DNA of 64,000 bases, from NCBI GenBank assembly GCA_018303845.1, contig JAGVXH010000004.1, positions 69,165 through 133,164 on the forward strand, read 5' to 3'. Below are positions 1,956-58,752 of this stretch, in pieces. This DNA comes from Candidatus Pacearchaeota archaeon. GTDB taxonomy: Archaea > Nanobdellota > Nanobdellia > Pacearchaeales > GW2011-AR1. Position numbers and translations under genes: made by a program. Below the pieces are notes generated by a model, which did not search any database, was not told where the DNA came from, and was given only the letters and a program-made list of their open reading frames with translations. Every line of letters starts with the position of its first letter. Position 1 is the stretch's first letter.

Positions 1956-2549
1956 TTAAACAATTGTTGCCTTTAAAATCACAACATCCTCAACGGGTCG
2001 GTCGCCAGATCTAGTAGCGACACCAGCAATTTCGTCAACAACTTCCATCCCTTCCACAACCTCACCAAAGACAGGATGCTTGCTACTCAAAGGCTCTTTA
2101 TCATAATCCAAAAAAGAGTTGTCAACCAAGTTAATAAAAAATTGACTCGAACCAGTATTCGGTCCAGCATTAGCCATAGCAATTGTGCCCCGAACATTCG
2201 AATGCCCCGGAACAAACTCGTCCTTTATCTTAGGAATTTTCGGGTCGCCAAATCCAGTACCAGTCGGGTCGCCTCCCTGAATCATAAAATCCTCAATCAC
2301 CCTATGAAAAATAACACCGTCATAAGTTCCAGCTTCGACCAACTTCTTAAAATTCCCAGCAGTCACAGGCATGTCATCGTACAACTTTATTACGATATCC
2401 CCATGATTTGTTTCTAATTTCACTTTAGTTACCATATTAGCTTCCACATTGTCAAACATTTTAATAACAAACAACGTAAACAAAATAACCAATGCCACAC
2501 TTAAAAAGATTGCGACAGCCTTGTTTTTTAGCAACTTTTTAACACCCAT
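1956..2549 (-). CDS. Cyclophilin-type peptidyl-prolyl cis-trans isomerase with N-terminal membrane anchor
   Basis: FHRVIEDFMIQGGDPTGTG and GTIAMANAGPNTGSSQFFI motifs, with a hydrophobic N-terminus. ATG at 2549. Confidence 0.85.
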   Translation of the reverse strand: MGVKKLLKNKAVAIFLSVALVILFTLFVIKMFDNVEANMVTKVKLETNHGDIVIKLYDDMPVTAGNFKKLVEAGTYDGVIFHRVIEDFMIQGGDPTGTGFGDPKIPKIKDEFVPGHSNVRGTIAMANAGPNTGSSQFFINLVDNSFLDYDKEPLSSKHPVFGEVVEGMEVVDEIAGVATRSGDRPVEDVVILKATIV

Positions 2550-2602
2550 AAAGCAACCAGAACCAAACAAATTTAAAAACCTTCCCCCCACTTTAAACGT
2601 AA

Positions 2603-2683
2603 GCCTCTATCGCGTAATGGTATCGCACTGGTCTTGAACACCAGACCCCTCGGGGTATCCAGGTCCGATTCCTGGTGGAGGCG
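2603..2683 (+). tRNA. tRNA-Ser (anticodon TGA), class II, no encoded CCA
   Basis: Hand-folded. Acceptor GCCTCTA/TGGAGGC; D arm GCG-TAATGGTAT-CGC; anticodon arm CTGGT-CTTGAAC-ACCAG; 14-nt variable arm ACCCCTCGGGGTAT; T arm CCAGG-TCCGATT-CCTGG; discriminator G. The T-loop is slightly atypical (TCC rather than TTC). Confidence 0.7.
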
Positions 2684-2799
2684 TAGCCTAAATTAGGAAG
2701 AGGACCCTTGGGTTTAAAGAAAATCTCTAGATTTTCTTTAGGAACCTTCGGTTCCGTGTCCGAGCTTCTTTGAAGCGAAGGCGATTCCTGGTGGAGGCG
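2684..2799 (+). pseudogene. Degenerate tRNA-Ser(TGA)-derived copy with a three-hairpin insert (2716-2781) and an exact copy of the tRNA 3' end (2782-2799)
   Basis: GCCTAAA resembles the acceptor and ACCCTTGGGT the variable arm. The insert follows, then CGATT-CCTGG-TGGAGGC-G, identical to 2666-2683. The D and anticodon arms are missing. Confidence 0.45.
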
Positions 2800-2815
2800 T
2801 CCTAGTTTAGGAAAA

Positions 2816-2896
2816 GCCCATATCGCGTAATGGTATCGCAGTGGTCTCGAACACCACGCCCTCCGGGGCATCCCCGTTCGATTCGGGGTATGGGCG
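2816..2896 (+). tRNA. tRNA-Ser (anticodon CGA), class II, no encoded CCA
   Basis: Hand-folded. Acceptor GCCCATA/TATGGGC; D arm GCG-TAATGGTAT-CGC; anticodon arm GTGGT-CTCGAAC-ACCAC; variable arm GCCCTCCGGGGCAT; T arm CCCCG-TTCGATT-CGGGG; discriminator G. Confidence 0.8.
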
Positions 2897-2899
2897 TAA

Positions 2900-3111
2900 C
2901 TCATAAAGGCGTAATCGCGGTATCGCCGAGCTAAACGCTTTGAAGAAAAATAAATATAACTAAATTTTTCTGAAATGCATTTTGCGAGTAGGTCTCGAAC
3001 ACCACGCCCTCCGGGACATCCCCGTTTGGAAAAAATCTTTAGATTTTTTCCAGGAAGCTCTGCTTCCGTGTCCGAGTGTCTTTGACACGAAGGCGATTCG
3101 GGGTATGGGCG
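2900..3111 (+). pseudogene. tRNA-Ser(CGA) paralogue interrupted by two insertions (about 2930-2985 and 3028-3093); either a multi-intron tRNA or a pseudo-tRNA
   Basis: It is colinear with 2816-2896. CTCATA-AA-GGCGTAATCGCGGTATCGCC resembles the acceptor and D arm. TAGGT-CTCGAAC-ACCAC is the anticodon arm with 2 basal mismatches. The variable arm and CCCCG-TT follow, then a 66-nt insert, then CGATT-CGGGG-TATGGGC-G. Confidence 0.45.
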
Positions 3112-3130
3112 TAAATAGAAAGAGGATAAC

Positions 3131-3673
3131 TTATTTTTTCTTTTCAAATCTACCTAAAATATAGACACCGAACTTTGAAAGTATATTTACTAAAGAAATC
3201 ATAAAGTATGCAAAGAAAAAAAGTATTAAAGATTTACCCAAGAACACCTCTCTATCAAATACTATTATTTTATATAAATAGGACGGGAGAAATATTATTA
3301 ATACTATCAAAAAAATTCCAAAAATTATAGTAGTTAAGATATTATAGGATAAATTTTTCCTTAATTTCTCCATATATAGTTCAATTATTTTTTCAGAATT
3401 TTCTAGGCTAGCAAATTCTTTTTTTGAATATTTTTTTGTATTTGTTAATAAAATTAATACATTTATTAAAAATCCTACGATGATAGAGAAAAAGGCTATA
3501 GATGAGGTAATTATTTGATTAAATACAGTATCATTCAATGTCACAACAAGTACCATTGAGAGGAGAATGGGAATTATCAGAAAATTAAGAATAAAAATAG
3601 ATATTTTATAGTCATCTAACATTGTTTTATAATTTTCCCTTAGATAAATAAATATATTTAATGGTTCAAACAT
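3131..3673 (-). CDS. Multi-pass membrane protein (about 4-5 TM), function unknown, in an A+T-rich island
   Basis: Hydrophobic segments: IFILNFLIIPILLSMVLVV, SSIAFFSIIVGFLINVLILL, IIFGIFLIVLIIFL and LILFFFAYFMISLVNIL. The start overlaps the upstream gene stop by 8 nt. Confidence 0.5.
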   Translation of the reverse strand: MFEPLNIFIYLRENYKTMLDDYKISIFILNFLIIPILLSMVLVVTLNDTVFNQIITSSIAFFSIIVGFLINVLILLTNTKKYSKKEFASLENSEKIIELYMEKLRKNLSYNILTTIIFGIFLIVLIIFLPSYLYKIIVFDREVFLGKSLILFFFAYFMISLVNILSKFGVYILGRFEKKK

Positions 3674-4577
3674 TTTCTGCGACCTCTTTTAAAAATCCAA
3701 TTGCTTTATTATAAAATATATCTAATTTAGGAAAATCTCCTTCAAATTCTATTTCTTCTCCCTCGCTAAAACATATGCCTTGATCTACAATAAGAACTCT
3801 GGACGAACCATCTTTAAGTTCAACTTCCAATCTTAAAGTCTTGTATGTTTCTCCATCAATTTCTAAATATTTTTTACAATCATTATTTACGAGACCGCTC
3901 TTTATACTTTTAATAAATTCAGAAATAGGAGTTTTTGAGTTTCTTATGGTTATTATTTTTTCTTCTATCAATGTACCAACTTCGTATTTTCCCAAAGCTT
4001 TCAAAAGCCCTCTTTCTGAGTCTCTAGGAATTCTGTTTCTGATATATCGTATTTTATTTATTTTAAAGACTTTTGAAAGATCGTGTGATGTGATCGGATT
4101 AACATATAACTCTATTCCCCCTGAGTTTATCCCTTTATCCCTTAAGAATTCTCTCAATTGATCCTTGAGCATAGTTTTTATTCCTCTTCTCTTAAATTGA
4201 TTTATACAAATTATTGCGTAGTCCCCAATAATTTTCATCATATAATAATAAGGTATCTCTTCAGTTTCAATAGTGGTTTTTTCCTTTGTAATTTGAGTAG
4301 TTTTTATATTTTTTATTTTAGAGTTATACCCAAAATCGCCGTATCCTATACTGCCATAATAAACATCATCATCTTTATTATGCAAAAATTCTTTACACCC
4401 CATATATGTGCTATCGGCGTTGTTCACATAATTTCTATTCGCAGAAAGAAAATCTGAAAATAATCCAGGAAAATTAAGTCCAGTTAATAAATTTATAAAA
4501 ACATGCGGCTGGCCCTTTTTCCTAAACCTCATATCTCTAATCTTCAGCTTATATGGAACAAGCTTTATTACTACCAT
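3666..4577 (-). CDS. Hypothetical soluble 303-aa protein, in an A+T-rich island
   Basis: Long ORF with an ATG start, co-directional with and overlapping the membrane-protein gene. I recognise no family. Confidence 0.5.
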   Translation of the reverse strand: MVVIKLVPYKLKIRDMRFRKKGQPHVFINLLTGLNFPGLFSDFLSANRNYVNNADSTYMGCKEFLHNKDDDVYYGSIGYGDFGYNSKIKNIKTTQITKEKTTIETEEIPYYYMMKIIGDYAIICINQFKRRGIKTMLKDQLREFLRDKGINSGGIELYVNPITSHDLSKVFKINKIRYIRNRIPRDSERGLLKALGKYEVGTLIEEKIITIRNSKTPISEFIKSIKSGLVNNDCKKYLEIDGETYKTLRLEVELKDGSSRVLIVDQGICFSEGEEIEFEGDFPKLDIFYNKAIGFLKEVAENV

Positions 4578-4756
4578 AACATTGTAGGATTCTGGTCTTT
4601 TTAATTATTAGTATATTCAGTTATTGTTAATATAAAATCCAAAAACTTCCCACTAACCCGACCTCACCATTCCAGACATTTTCAACCGAAGAACGCAACC
4701 GCTAAAACGGCCTCATCCTTCGTCAAAAACAGCGTAGCCAACTAGACCTCATCGTT

Positions 4757-57375: not shown

Positions 57376-57456
57376 CCATGAGAAATGCGCGCCAGAGGCG
57401 TGCAATTTTTCATGGAATAATCTAATTTCTAATCTCTAAAATCTATCATCTAGGCG
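57376..57456. repeat. Composite element: GAA-type hairpin (57376-57415), AATAAT, then a period-7 CTA/TAG ladder (57422-57456)
   Basis: CCATGA-GAAA-TGCGCGCC-AGA-GGCGTGCA-ATTT-TTCATGG, then aataat, then ctaattt ctaatct ctaaaat ctatcat ctaggcg. The last CTA is the trmY stop codon. Confidence 0.75.
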
Positions 57457-58046
57457 CAAGAGCGCCTATCCATCTCATTATGCAAAATCGTCGCGACCTG
57501 ACTAGCAAACAAGACTCTAGGTCCAACCGAAACCCCATCAATCTTCTTCAAAAATTTTCGAAAACCCGAAGGAAACCCCTCATGATCTCCAATCAAAAAA
57601 ACCGAATTCTTCCCTTCTCTAAGTTCTAATTTCAAATCTCTAATATCTGTGCCTTTGCCATCAAGCAAAAGCACATCCTTCCCCTCTTTATCCAAATCCA
57701 AAACCAACTTTTCAAAACCTTTCTTCTCAATACTACAACCAGGAACAATTTCCCGAAGCCCCTCTTCATCTTTCGCCTTGTAAAGCATCCTCTTAATCAA
57801 CCCCGCAACATTCTTCTTACTAATCGGCATCTCCTCATTGGACTCAAAAACCAAATGTCGCGGATTATTCGGCCCCCCATCAAAAATCAAATGAAGCTTC
57901 ACATCCTCTCTCATAGCATTAGAAGTAAAAAAACAACTAATAATAAAATTACAAACAATATCCATCCGCCCAGCCTCCATCAAATTATCCCCAATCAAAT
58001 TCCCAGCCGTCACAGCATCCTTAGAATAATAAACAAATTCTCTCAT
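57450..58046 (-). CDS. trmY: tRNA (pseudouridine54-N1)-methyltransferase TrmY, copy 1
   Basis: A SPOUT-family protein of about 200 aa: MREFVYYSKDAVTAGN...GRMDIVCNFIISCFF...FLIGDHEGF. Confidence 0.7.
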   Translation of the reverse strand: MREFVYYSKDAVTAGNLIGDNLMEAGRMDIVCNFIISCFFTSNAMREDVKLHLIFDGGPNNPRHLVFESNEEMPISKKNVAGLIKRMLYKAKDEEGLREIVPGCSIEKKGFEKLVLDLDKEGKDVLLLDGKGTDIRDLKLELREGKNSVFLIGDHEGFPSGFRKFLKKIDGVSVGPRVLFASQVATILHNEMDRRSCA

Positions 58047-58079: not shown

Positions 58080-58153
58080 TCATAAGAAATCATGAGGCGA
58101 AAGCCCGTGATTTTTTGTGAAATTTCTACTCCCTAAAATCTAATCTCTAATCT
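58080..58153. repeat. Composite element: hairpin (58080-58120) plus a period-7 CTA/TAG ladder (58126-58153)
   Basis: CCATAA-GAAA-TCATGAGGC-GAAA-GCCCGTGA-TTTT-TTGTG, then ctactcc ctaaaat ctaatct ctaatct. The last CTA is the stop of trmY copy 2. Confidence 0.7.
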
Positions 58154-58752
58154 CTGGCTTCTCTAACATCCAACTCATTCTGCAAAATCACCAAAGTCTG
58201 AACCGCCAAATACATCTTTTTTCCAAGACTGACTCTTCTGATCCCAGCCTTCTTCAACCATTTCTCTTCGTACTTCGGAAACCCATCCTGATCACCAATC
58301 AAAAAAACAACATTATCCAATCCTTCAATATCCCTAATCCCTTCGCCCTTCTTATCTAACAAAACAACTCGCTCTATCCCAACTTTCTCAATAACTTCAC
58401 GAAGTCCTTTCTTCTCAACAAAAAAATTCGGCAAAACCTCAATTCGTTTATCCTTAACATATCCATCCAAAACTTTCTTCAAAACTCCAGCAACATCTTT
58501 GGCTGCAACATCAATATTATTAGCACTCGGAATCGCAATTTTATGTGGTGCAATTTCAATATACTTCGGATGGTCCGGCGTCCCATTAAAGATTAGATGC
58601 AATCTAACATCATCACGGGAATTATGCGAAACAAAAAAACTATTAATAATAAAATTACAGACGATGTCCATTCGCCCAGCCACCATTAAATCATTCCCAA
58701 TCATCTTGCCACTAGTCACAGCACTCCCAGAATAAAAAATAAATTCCCGCAT
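58147..58752 (-). CDS. trmY: TrmY-family SPOUT methyltransferase, copy 2 (divergent paralogue)
   Basis: MREFIFYSGSAVTSGK...GRMDIVCNFIINSFF...FLIGDQDGF, colinear with copy 1. Confidence 0.65.
   Translation of the reverse strand: MREFIFYSGSAVTSGKMIGNDLMVAGRMDIVCNFIINSFFVSHNSRDDVRLHLIFNGTPDHPKYIEIAPHKIAIPSANNIDVAAKDVAGVLKKVLDGYVKDKRIEVLPNFFVEKKGLREVIEKVGIERVVLLDKKGEGIRDIEGLDNVVFLIGDQDGFPKYEEKWLKKAGIRRVSLGKKMYLAVQTLVILQNELDVREARD

Follow-up and report, generated by a model that had tools for sequence, protein, structure and literature searches.

A covarying three-hairpin module in redundant tRNA-Ser copies of an archaeal genome, a candidate for a very small mobile insertion

Two serine tRNA genes, tRNA-Ser(TGA) and tRNA-Ser(CGA), lie next to each other in a 64-kb stretch of contig JAGVXH010000004.1 from a Candidatus Pacearchaeota archaeon (the window), and each is followed by redundant tRNA-derived DNA into which a 67-nt, three-hairpin segment is set (Table 1). 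This segment is termed module B; copy B1 belongs to unit 1, which trails tRNA-Ser(TGA), and copy B2 to unit 2, which trails tRNA-Ser(CGA). A second insertion, at ~2927-2990, is termed module A. The gene content of the window is archaeal, including ribosomal protein P0 with the archaeal/eukaryotic insertion domain, a wyosine-synthesis radical-SAM enzyme, PCNA, the primase small subunit, Spt5, aIF5A, diphthamide synthase, FtsZ and SepF, and its G+C content is ~37%. Genome style and source suggest a DPANN-type archaeon.

The cyclophilin gene adjoining the cluster, present on 16 contigs from Rifle-aquifer and other groundwater assemblies, served as the anchor for obtaining the syntenic tRNA-Ser loci of relatives (numbered L0xx and L1xx), whose cyclophilins are 70-97% identical to that of the window. 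A metagenome scan by cyclophilin returned 80 loci, mostly from unrelated bacteria, of which six were useful. Flanks of up to 10 kb were read around the relatives' loci, and cyclophilin protein identity was taken as the measure of host relatedness (window/L030 97%, L030/L122 84%, window/L036 81%). Because a single syntenic anchor was used for all loci, the tie of module B to tRNA-Ser may be a sampling effect.

Table 1. Features of the tRNA-Ser cluster and its surroundings (positions in the window)
Feature	Positions	Strand	Remarks
Cyclophilin gene	1956-2549	minus	adjoins the tRNA-Ser cluster
Promoter-like box AATTTAAAAAC (archaeal)	2570-2580	plus	sole such box in the cluster
Antisense open reading frame (ORF), 184 aa	2593-3147	minus	runs through both tRNAs and both modules; L020 5403-5957
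Intact tRNA-Ser(TGA)	2603-2683	plus	ARAGORN; Rfam tRNA 54.7 bits
Trailer duplicate TAGCCTAAATTAGGAAGAGG	2684-2703	plus	resembles native inter-tRNA trailer
T-arm 5'-half-like sequence ACCCTTGGGTT	2704-2714	plus	directly left of B1; putative remnant
Module B1, 67 nt	2715-2781	plus	model R1 65.2 bits; sequence, fold, covariation
B1, 5' part	2716-2725/2730-2739; 2741-2746/2750-2755	plus	T, hairpin 1, A, hairpin 2
B1, 3' part	2756-2763; 2764-2768/2772-2776; 2777-2781	plus	linker GTGTCCGA, hairpin 3, GAAGG
Copy of tRNA-Ser(TGA) 3' end	2782-2799	plus	C56 to G73; 18/18 identity
Native inter-tRNA trailer TCCTAGTTTAGGAAAA	2800-2815	plus	homologous to sequence right after tRNA-Ser(TGA) in L034, L118
Intact tRNA-Ser(CGA)	2816-2896	plus	ARAGORN; Rfam tRNA 50.5 bits
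Decayed pseudo-tRNA-Ser(CGA), 5' part	2897-2926	plus	acceptor and D arm; aligns to intact tRNA with indels
Module A	2927-2990	plus	conserved insertion between D arm and anticodon stem, ~61-64 nt
Pseudo-tRNA-Ser(CGA), anticodon arm to T-stem 5' strand and TT	2991-3026	plus	~95% identical to 2840-2878
Module B2, 67 nt	3027-3093	plus	model R1 65.0 bits
B2, 5' part	3028-3037/3042-3051; 3053-3058/3062-3067	plus	T, hairpin 1, A, hairpin 2
B2, 3' part	3068-3075; 3076-3080/3084-3088; 3089-3093	plus	linker GTGTCCGA, hairpin 3, GAAGG
Copy of tRNA-Ser(CGA) 3' end	3094-3111	plus	18/18 identity
Variable island	3112-4650		directly downstream of cluster, after second 3' fragment
Island ORF, 180 aa	3131-3673	minus	hydrophobic
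Island ORF, 303 aa	3666-4577	minus	overlaps the 180-aa ORF
Tandem PF04013 genes	57450-58046; 58147-58752	minus

The two copies of module B in the window are 78% identical, and all differences within their stems are compensatory. The original prediction, made from the sequence alone, had described three hairpins with six compensatory base pairs, and both sequence and fold bear this out. It had also placed a 66-nt insert within the T-loop; the site is right, but the insert is one T longer (67 nt) and lies between T55 and C56. Linker GTGTCCGA and pentamer GAAGG are identical in B1 and B2, as had been noted, but this invariance is limited to the window: relatives carry GTGCCCGA, CGTTCCGA, GTGTCTGA and GACGG. 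A 32-nt pattern common to both inserts is found only at 2756-2787 and 3068-3099, with 0 occurrences expected by chance.

An assembly artefact is ruled out by five independent assemblies that span the entire 601-nt stretch at 99.8-100% identity; five shorter contigs match the part that they cover at 99-100%. Two Logan contigs of the window species stop exactly at 2781, the last base of B1, and the L122 contig stops exactly after GAAGG. These coincident contig ends in two species suggest more than one continuation after B in de Bruijn assembly, which is a hint and not proof. The 184-aa antisense ORF, which gene callers annotate across the cluster and public gene predictions list as a protein, has no family match and is almost certainly spurious.

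A covariance model (R1) was built on the core of B and used to scan ~550 kb of fetched sequence. True copies scored 41-65 bits and everything else 22 bits or less. In the model-guided core alignment of seven distinct sequences, 94.5% of cells are paired, 7/13 pairs have changed on both sides, and none of 500 shuffles reaches the observed covariation score; sliding the partners lowers pairing to 32-59%. The five full-length sense copies give a similar picture (96.5% of cells paired, 7 of the 23 pairs changed on both sides, 0/500 shuffles, 35-61% with partners slid), and position 6-15 of hairpin 2 shows four pair types. The hairpins of B are under selection.

The cells that depart from Watson-Crick pairing on the element's own strand comprise seven of G.U type and one A.C, some of which arise because hairpin 3 is imperfectly registered in L034 and L036 (inspection shows one G.T in L034 and none in L036). 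This bias suggests that structure matters on one strand, as single-stranded DNA or RNA, and it holds also at loci where the element strand is antisense to the tRNA. The claim of selection on an RNA structure is upheld as regards structural covariation; the evidence points to a DNA element and not to an RNA one.

A search of positions 2500-3250 against Rfam 15, with ribozymes, C/D and H/ACA families included, gave nothing above noise other than tRNA at expectation values up to 10, and the same was true of ten related loci at values up to 1. Several known motifs were considered and rejected. A K-turn reading of CC-GA-[hairpin 3]-GA-A-GG fails on inspection, as the bulged strand lacks a 3-nt bulge on the 5' side of the GA, and a hammerhead-like reading of GA-helix-GAA lacks the CUGANGA core and an Rfam match. 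By inspection B contains no UGAUGA or CUGA box, and A holds merely imperfect UGAAGA/CUGA-like motifs. A local alignment of A and B as permuted copies of one element is not convincing either, its score being reached by 4/300 shuffles for B1 and 145/300 for B2.

The DNA that hosts B2 is a near-complete pseudo-tRNA, as predicted. Its acceptor and D-arm part has 3 nt between acceptor and D stem and an extra CGC in the D-loop; the first acceptor pair is mismatched, the D arm altered, and the anticodon stem cut to 3 bp (TAGGT against ACCAC). In the window and L030 this pseudo-tRNA(CGA) reads CCCCGTT-[T+B]-CGATT, whereas GTTCGATT or GTCCGATT stands unbroken in the intact tRNA and in the pseudo-tRNAs of L118 (CGA) and L038 (TGA). 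An alignment of all five shows B as a clean 67-nt insertion that turns GTT|CGATT into GTT-[67 nt]-CGATT and duplicates no base; A is inserted just as cleanly behind the D arm.

The second insertion, estimated at about 55 nt in the original prediction, is indeed present and represents a separate conserved module, also found in L030, L038, L117 and L120. L030 carries module A at 97% identity, and L038, in a TGA-type pseudo-tRNA, at 86%. The trailing element of L117 and L120 is a relative of module A; the L118 pseudo-tRNA and the intact tRNAs lack it. Its central hairpin covaries (AGAAAAAT/ATTTTTCT, ATAAAAT/ATTTTGT, GCAAAC/GTTTGC) between conserved flanks (CGCTTTGA ... GAAATGCA). In these respects A behaves similarly to B.

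An insertion placed exactly between T55 and C56, with unique borders, invites the explanation that the trailing copies are intron-containing tRNA-Ser genes and that A and B are large non-canonical introns cut out by the archaeal splicing endonuclease. A broad-specificity enzyme of this kind is reported from ultrasmall archaea (PMC3239211). Module A offers a 4-bp helix (UCGC/GCGA) with two 3-nt bulges, partially resembling a bulge-helix-bulge motif. Its outer helices are weak, with 2/3 and 1/3 pairs against 4/4 in the central helix, and L038 and L117 have lost the motif; for a given pair of sites, 2.6% of random sequences form a complete one. Around the ends of B, the best solution over all registers has 3/4 central, 2/3 outer and 1/3 inner pairs, and a 7-nt T-loop is not restored. 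Removal of A would leave an A.A mismatch in the anticodon stem, already reduced to 3 bp in unit 2; unit 1 has no D and anticodon arms, no functional cloverleaf results, and intact intron-less genes stand directly upstream. Copies antisense to the tRNA, beside tRNA 5' fragments (L034, L035 twice, L122), cannot be tRNA introns. The intron proposal, one of the candidate explanations offered originally, is thus highly improbable.

The relatives form a patchwork. L033 has both tRNAs abutting with nothing trailing, and L034 is an empty site for unit 1: the end of tRNA(TGA) is followed directly by TCCTAATATTAGGAAAA, the trailer that follows the second 18-nt copy in the window. L036 has unit 1 with strongly diverged hairpins in which pairing is kept. 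L031 and L037 carry shorter or different inserts at the same T-loop position that share just parts with B, hairpin 3 of the L037 insert being identical to that of B. L038 has a near-complete pseudo-tRNA(TGA) with module A and an intact T-arm, and L118 a pseudo-tRNA(CGA) with neither A nor B.

Module B also occurs in the other orientation. The core lies on the strand opposite the tRNA in L034 (48.5 bits), L035 (57.1 and 41.5 bits) and L122, preceding tRNA(CGA) in L034 and L035 and tRNA(TGA) in L122; in L034 and L035 it sits between a 14-nt 5' fragment and the intact tRNA. For instance, L035 reads, in order, fragment GCCCACATCGCGTA, 62 nt, and the intact tRNA starting with the same 14 nt, and box AATTTAAAAAC stands 33-34 nt before the fragment, not before the tRNA. 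The reverse complement of the DNA between these repeats is GAAAAC-TTTTAA-GTTTTC-GTGTCCGA-hairpin-GACGG, corresponding to hairpin 2, linker, hairpin 3 and terminal pentamer of B. Around the reverse cassette lie an inverted repeat of 9 bp that corresponds to tRNA nt 6-14 (CATCGCGTA...TACGCGATG) and a conserved 9-nt linker (ATGARCAAA). In addition, L122 has a full sense B right after nt 13 of a second 5' copy, that is, in a D-loop, reading GCCCACATCGCGT-T-B.

The closest relative, L030 (cyclophilin 97%), has both units and allows a comparison segment by segment. Identity between the two genomes is 98.3% in unit 1, 98.1% in the pseudo-tRNA with module A and 98% in the flanking non-coding DNA, against 83.6% for B2 (11/67 positions differ) and 83.3% for its 3' fragment (3/18). 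Identity falls abruptly from 98% to 84% exactly at the left border of B2. Similarity of B also fails to follow that of the hosts: L030 unit 2 and L122 share 90% in B at 84% host identity, in different tRNAs and different loops; the window's B2 and L030 unit 2 share 84% at an orthologous position at 97% host identity; and B1 and B2, two loci in one cluster of the same genome, share 78%. The abrupt drop and the incongruence between B and host are hard to reconcile with a passive, vertically inherited scar. They indicate that B-containing segments have been exchanged or re-inserted.

We favour the reading of B as a small DNA insertion module, non-autonomous and dependent on its structure, that lands in loops of redundant tRNA-Ser copies, and assign this reading a probability of roughly 0.5. 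The redundant copies would be pseudogenes, or att-like (attachment-site-like) terminal duplications left by element integration into tRNA genes at an integration hot spot, the duplicated segment running from the T-loop to the 3' end plus trailer or from the 5' end to the D-loop. Insertion would be tolerated since the intact upstream tRNA keeps its function. Module B lies after T55 of the T-loop in the window and after nt 13 of the D-loop in L122, and a shorter form lies reverse-complemented beside a duplicated 5' end (nt 1-14). Being non-autonomous, it would depend on a recombinase or transposase encoded elsewhere that recognises the hairpins in single-stranded form. A T-loop-targeting mobile RNA element had been among the candidates of the original prediction; mobility is supported by empty sites, both orientations, replacement and host incongruence, but the element is better described as DNA, and one copy occupies a D-loop.

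Several observations weigh against an insertion module. No transposase, integrase or reverse transcriptase was found in a Pfam scan of ~50 ORFs of the 64-kb window, a small part of the genome, and all B copies are at tRNA-Ser loci, the sole loci fetched and hence a biased sample. Terminal inverted repeats are lacking, B itself is not flanked by a target-site duplication, and simple insertion does not account for the 9-bp inverted repeat of tRNA nt 6-14 round the reverse form. The window and L036 copies, at 81% host identity, keep both position and the 12-mer left of B; such conservation in place could reflect a host function rather than repeated insertion. No relatives of B were detected in GTDB representative genomes (by pattern), IMG/VR (by patterns), or phage and plasmid collections (by BLAST). 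The GTDB scan with CCGTGTCCGAN{10,16}GAAGGCGATT gave only 19 bacterial chance matches, at 16 bits or less by the model; three patterns gave 0, 5 and 13 matches in IMG/VR, all at 22 bits or less, the best in coding DNA of GC-rich phages. As far as searched, the B family is confined to one lineage of small-genome (DPANN-like) aquifer archaea.

Two classes of element were set aside. A miniature inverted-repeat transposable element, mini-casposon or casposon-like element does not fit, because neither the ends of B (TGGAAAA..., ...CGAAGG) nor those of the inter-repeat DNA are inverted repeats; the inverted repeats seen are internal hairpins or tRNA-derived. A retroelement primer copy is excluded by the lack of CCA on the fragments.

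The tRNA genes and their terminal repeats bear on what created the landing sites. Both genes were recovered by ARAGORN and Rfam, which call the intact tRNAs only and not the trailing copies. Each 3' end is repeated downstream as an exact 18-nt copy, as had been stated: CGATTCCTGGTGGAGGCG occurs exactly twice in the window, at 2666-2683 and 2782-2799 (0.01 expected from shuffles), and CGATTCGGGGTATGGGCG exactly twice, at 2879-2896 and 3094-3111 (shuffle expectation within 0.01-0.03). The repeats enclose 98 nt in unit 1, 197 nt in unit 2 and 65-450 nt in relatives, where exact terminal tRNA repeats recur (18/18 in L036 and L037, 14/14 in L035). The 18-nt fragments stay perfect although neighbouring trailers diverge. 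In L030 the unit-2 fragment is CGATTTGGGGTACAGGCG, the acceptor type of the L031/L117 tRNA-Ser(CGA) and not of the gene alongside; the fragments of L030 (TACAGGCG) and L034 (GCCTGTA) both bear this tRNA(CGA) type of L031 and L117, which fits a tRNA end replaced by incoming DNA.

The left part of unit 1 is a duplicated trailer and not an acceptor or D arm, which amends the original prediction. Its similarity to trailer 2800-2819 and to the trailer at the empty site of L034 is reached by 0-1 of 2000 shuffles, whereas a match to the tRNA 5' end is not significant (193/2000); a minihelix in which this flank serves as acceptor 5' strand, covarying with the 3' copy, was likewise rejected, a duplicated trailer fitting better. 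With 2684-2703 as a trailer duplicate, the direct repeat of unit 1 extends to ~35 nt. Its tRNA part has no mismatch and its trailer part matches at 13-14/17 positions, which is the pattern of attL/attR hybrids. The adjoining 2704-2714 may be a T-arm remnant: the 12-mer ACCCTTGGGTTT left of B1 is identical in L036, and NNNGG-TT sequences of like kind precede the inserts of L031 and L037.

These repeats lend themselves to a different account, in which B does not move by itself but forms a conserved arm beside the attP site of integrative elements, either viruses or plasmids, whose recombination targets are tRNA-Ser ends, the units being cargo-less att-flanked remnants or miniature elements moved by an integrase in trans, much like cis-mobilizable elements. 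Archaea are well known to carry such integration scars. One copy of each direct repeat completes an intact tRNA, and unoccupied sites exist in L034 (3' of tRNA(TGA)), in L033 (both genes) and in L120 where L117 is occupied. The exact terminal duplication affects four different target sequences, the unit 1 repeat runs into the trailer as expected of attP/attB hybrids, and the foreign acceptor types of L030 and L034 look as if one end had been replaced. The GAAGG/GACGG end of B always points toward the outer displaced fragment, whichever tRNA end is duplicated, and a variable island adjoins the cluster.

Against such an arm, the inter-repeat DNA is short and geneless, and no integrase family was found among the called genes of any locus or the ~50 window ORFs. 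Module B interrupts the T-arm (CCCCG-TT | CGATT-CGGGG), the would-be crossover region, and occurs in the D-loop of L122 as well; homologous pseudo-tRNAs exist without it. The pseudo-tRNA left of B matches its own host's tRNA (window, L118), which is unexpected for an element-borne arm. Compensatory change in three hairpins is unlike protein-binding arm sites, and no related sequence turned up in the pattern scans of IMG/VR or by BLAST in phage and plasmid collections. The original prediction had itself allowed that the repeats might prove to be att scars around unrelated DNA; they do look att-type, and L034 is empty, but the internal sequence is related between copies and covaries. We consider the arm account unlikely, though it deserves to be taken seriously.

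Three further arrangements in relatives are recorded here. In L117 (~2425-2555, minus strand) a 125-nt insert unrelated to B follows tRNA-Ser(TGA), with L120 as the empty site. A direct repeat of 17 nt, GGGTGTGGGCGTCAAAG, stands on both sides of this insert and extends 6 nt past the tRNA end, so that this gene has received another duplicative insertion. In L041 (1993-2128) the box is followed by a 24-26-nt tRNA-Ser 5' fragment (acceptor and entire D arm), ~110 nt and the intact tRNA-Ser(CGA). Similarity between the junction GCCGAACAAAACGCT and the beginning of module A is noticeable, and the arrangement suggests a third breakpoint class at position 26/27. L030 (2470-2667) and L118 (~100-246), both on the minus strand, share a spacer of ~190-250 nt between the intact tRNA-Ser(CGA) and the pseudo-copy that it precedes. 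It is 87% identical over 68 nt at ~80% host protein identity, is lost in the window, and holds nested inverted repeats (GCAAAT...ATTTGC, GGTT...AACC), so it might be another structured element.

The promoter-like box of the cluster raises the question of transcription. In 11 of 13 related loci the first tRNA-5'-like start follows the box at a distance of 33-34 nt, and in L035, L041 and L122 this start is a displaced 5' fragment and not the intact tRNA. Transcription of the whole cluster is probably driven from the box at 2570-2580. In a further account, close to the small RNA from a tRNA-like precursor that was among the candidates of the original prediction, the trailing units would be functional tRNA-Ser-derived RNA genes, co-transcribed and freed by tRNA-processing enzymes, with B as the body of a small RNA or a protein-binding platform. 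The single box for the entire cluster would suit such genes, as would the start of the units 1-3 nt past the tRNA 3' end, the covarying structure with its one-strand G.U bias, and the retention of the linkers, and of the 12-mer on the left side of B, in hosts that share 81% protein identity and have saturated neutral DNA. T runs are at most four in copies between two tRNAs, which would favour read-through where the downstream tRNA must be made, and reach T6-T7 in terminal copies, in a small sample.

Against RNA genes, the units are missing in the close relatives L033, L034 (3' side), L118 and L038, and the core lies opposite the tRNA and its promoter in L034, L035 and L122. What looks like an acceptor 5' strand in unit 1 is the trailer in duplicate, acceptor pairing in L030 unit 2 is poor, and there is no Rfam family, C/D box or H/ACA box. 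We consider this explanation, too, unlikely, and about as probable as the arm account; the two are the main rivals of the insertion module.

A broader proposal, which we put forward more tentatively than the insertion module itself, is that B and perhaps A stand for a hitherto undescribed kind of tiny hairpin cassette in DPANN-type archaea that moves in single-stranded form into D- and T-loops of tRNA-Ser gene copies, with redundant fragments as safe landing pads, or else for a new tRNA-linked structured RNA, made and processed along with the tRNAs. Transfer RNA genes are classical landing sites of integrating elements, and the scars are usually treated as inert. Here they carry a tiny module with hairpins kept by compensatory change, exchanged between near-identical genomes and found on either strand. 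Should B prove to move by itself, few structured mobile elements known from Archaea would be as small, and it would exemplify the targeting of tRNA-gene loops; essential single-copy tRNA genes would then tolerate invasion because a duplicated end takes the insertion. The arrangement also bears on the origin of disrupted tRNA genes, such as those with introns at odd positions and split genes, since discrete D-arm and T-loop inserts are seen that are not, or not yet, spliceable.

Some features of the tRNAs and of neighbouring genes are noted separately. The T-loop of the intact tRNA-Ser(TGA) (2657-2663) is TCCGATT, with C at position 55 where U is nearly universal; this C55 loop recurs in L030, L034 and the L038 pseudo-tRNA, and L031 and L036 read TTCGATT. 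The hexamer GTCCGA is common to the B linker GTGTCCGA and this T-loop. The two tandem genes near 58 kb both match PF04013, which we take to be the family of the archaeal methyltransferase aTrm56 that modifies T-loop C56. C56 is also the nucleotide directly 3' of the B insertion point; the correspondence is probably a coincidence, and a tandem duplicate is unusual in a reduced genome.

Downstream of the cluster, the hydrophobic character of the 180-aa island ORF suggests a putative membrane protein, and neither island ORF has a Pfam or PADLOC family. L030 has ~290 nt of unrelated sequence with a 58-aa ORF in place of the island, and homology resumes at aacccgacctcacc; other relatives have a major facilitator superfamily transporter there, or a zinc-ribbon protein with a PD-(D/E)xK-nuclease-like motif. 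A cyclodipeptide synthase gene, of an aminoacyl-tRNA-using family, lies ~125 nt from tRNA-Ser(TGA) in L031 (2239-2991), and another lies between tRNA-Ser leader remnants and cyclophilin in L122 (1573-2310). RadC-like genes stand alongside the cluster in L035 (1190-1855), L036 (1695-2357) and L122 (213-875).

Three known systems come closest. The first is the archaeal att scar, including that of cis-mobilizable elements without an integrase, which the locus resembles in the loop-to-gene-end repeat (reaching into the trailer in unit 1), in the empty sites of relatives and in the variable island beside the tRNA. In the archaeal cases described in PMC9897764, partial tRNA genes beside complete ones are the product of element integration, with 9-23 kb between the copies; the 65-450 nt of geneless DNA found here differ from the distances documented there. 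The tRNA-Ser loci also depart from these scars in the lack of a visible integrase, in the covarying hairpin module inside the would-be crossover loop, and in the mirror-image 5'-end duplications that B marks as well.

The second system is that of archaeal tRNA introns, which occur with bulge-helix-bulge motifs at D-arm and T-loop positions and have undergone transposition in Thermoproteales. Module B shares with them the non-canonical positions, including the T-loop, and the presence of related inserts in different tRNA genes. Unlike them, it lacks a bulge-helix-bulge, has host copies that are not functional tRNAs, and includes antisense copies, and its size of 61-67 nt with three independent hairpins is atypical.

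The third comparison is with elements recognised as folded single strands, namely the ends of IS200/IS605, repetitive extragenic palindromic (REP) sequences and REPINs moved by RAYT, and integron attC sites. No Y1 (HUH) transposase or integron integrase was found among the ORFs of the 64-kb window; the left end of B differs from that of IS608, with 1 nt between junction and hairpin 1, and B goes with tRNA-end duplications, which peel-and-paste transposition does not make. The likenesses are several. Module B is very small, keeps structure over sequence, and has imperfect pairs biased to one strand (7:1 in favour of wobble pairs). Short conserved single-stranded segments lie by the foot of its hairpins, no target site is duplicated, and B follows a short motif (GTT or CGT), with hairpin loops as the preferred targets, as in these systems.

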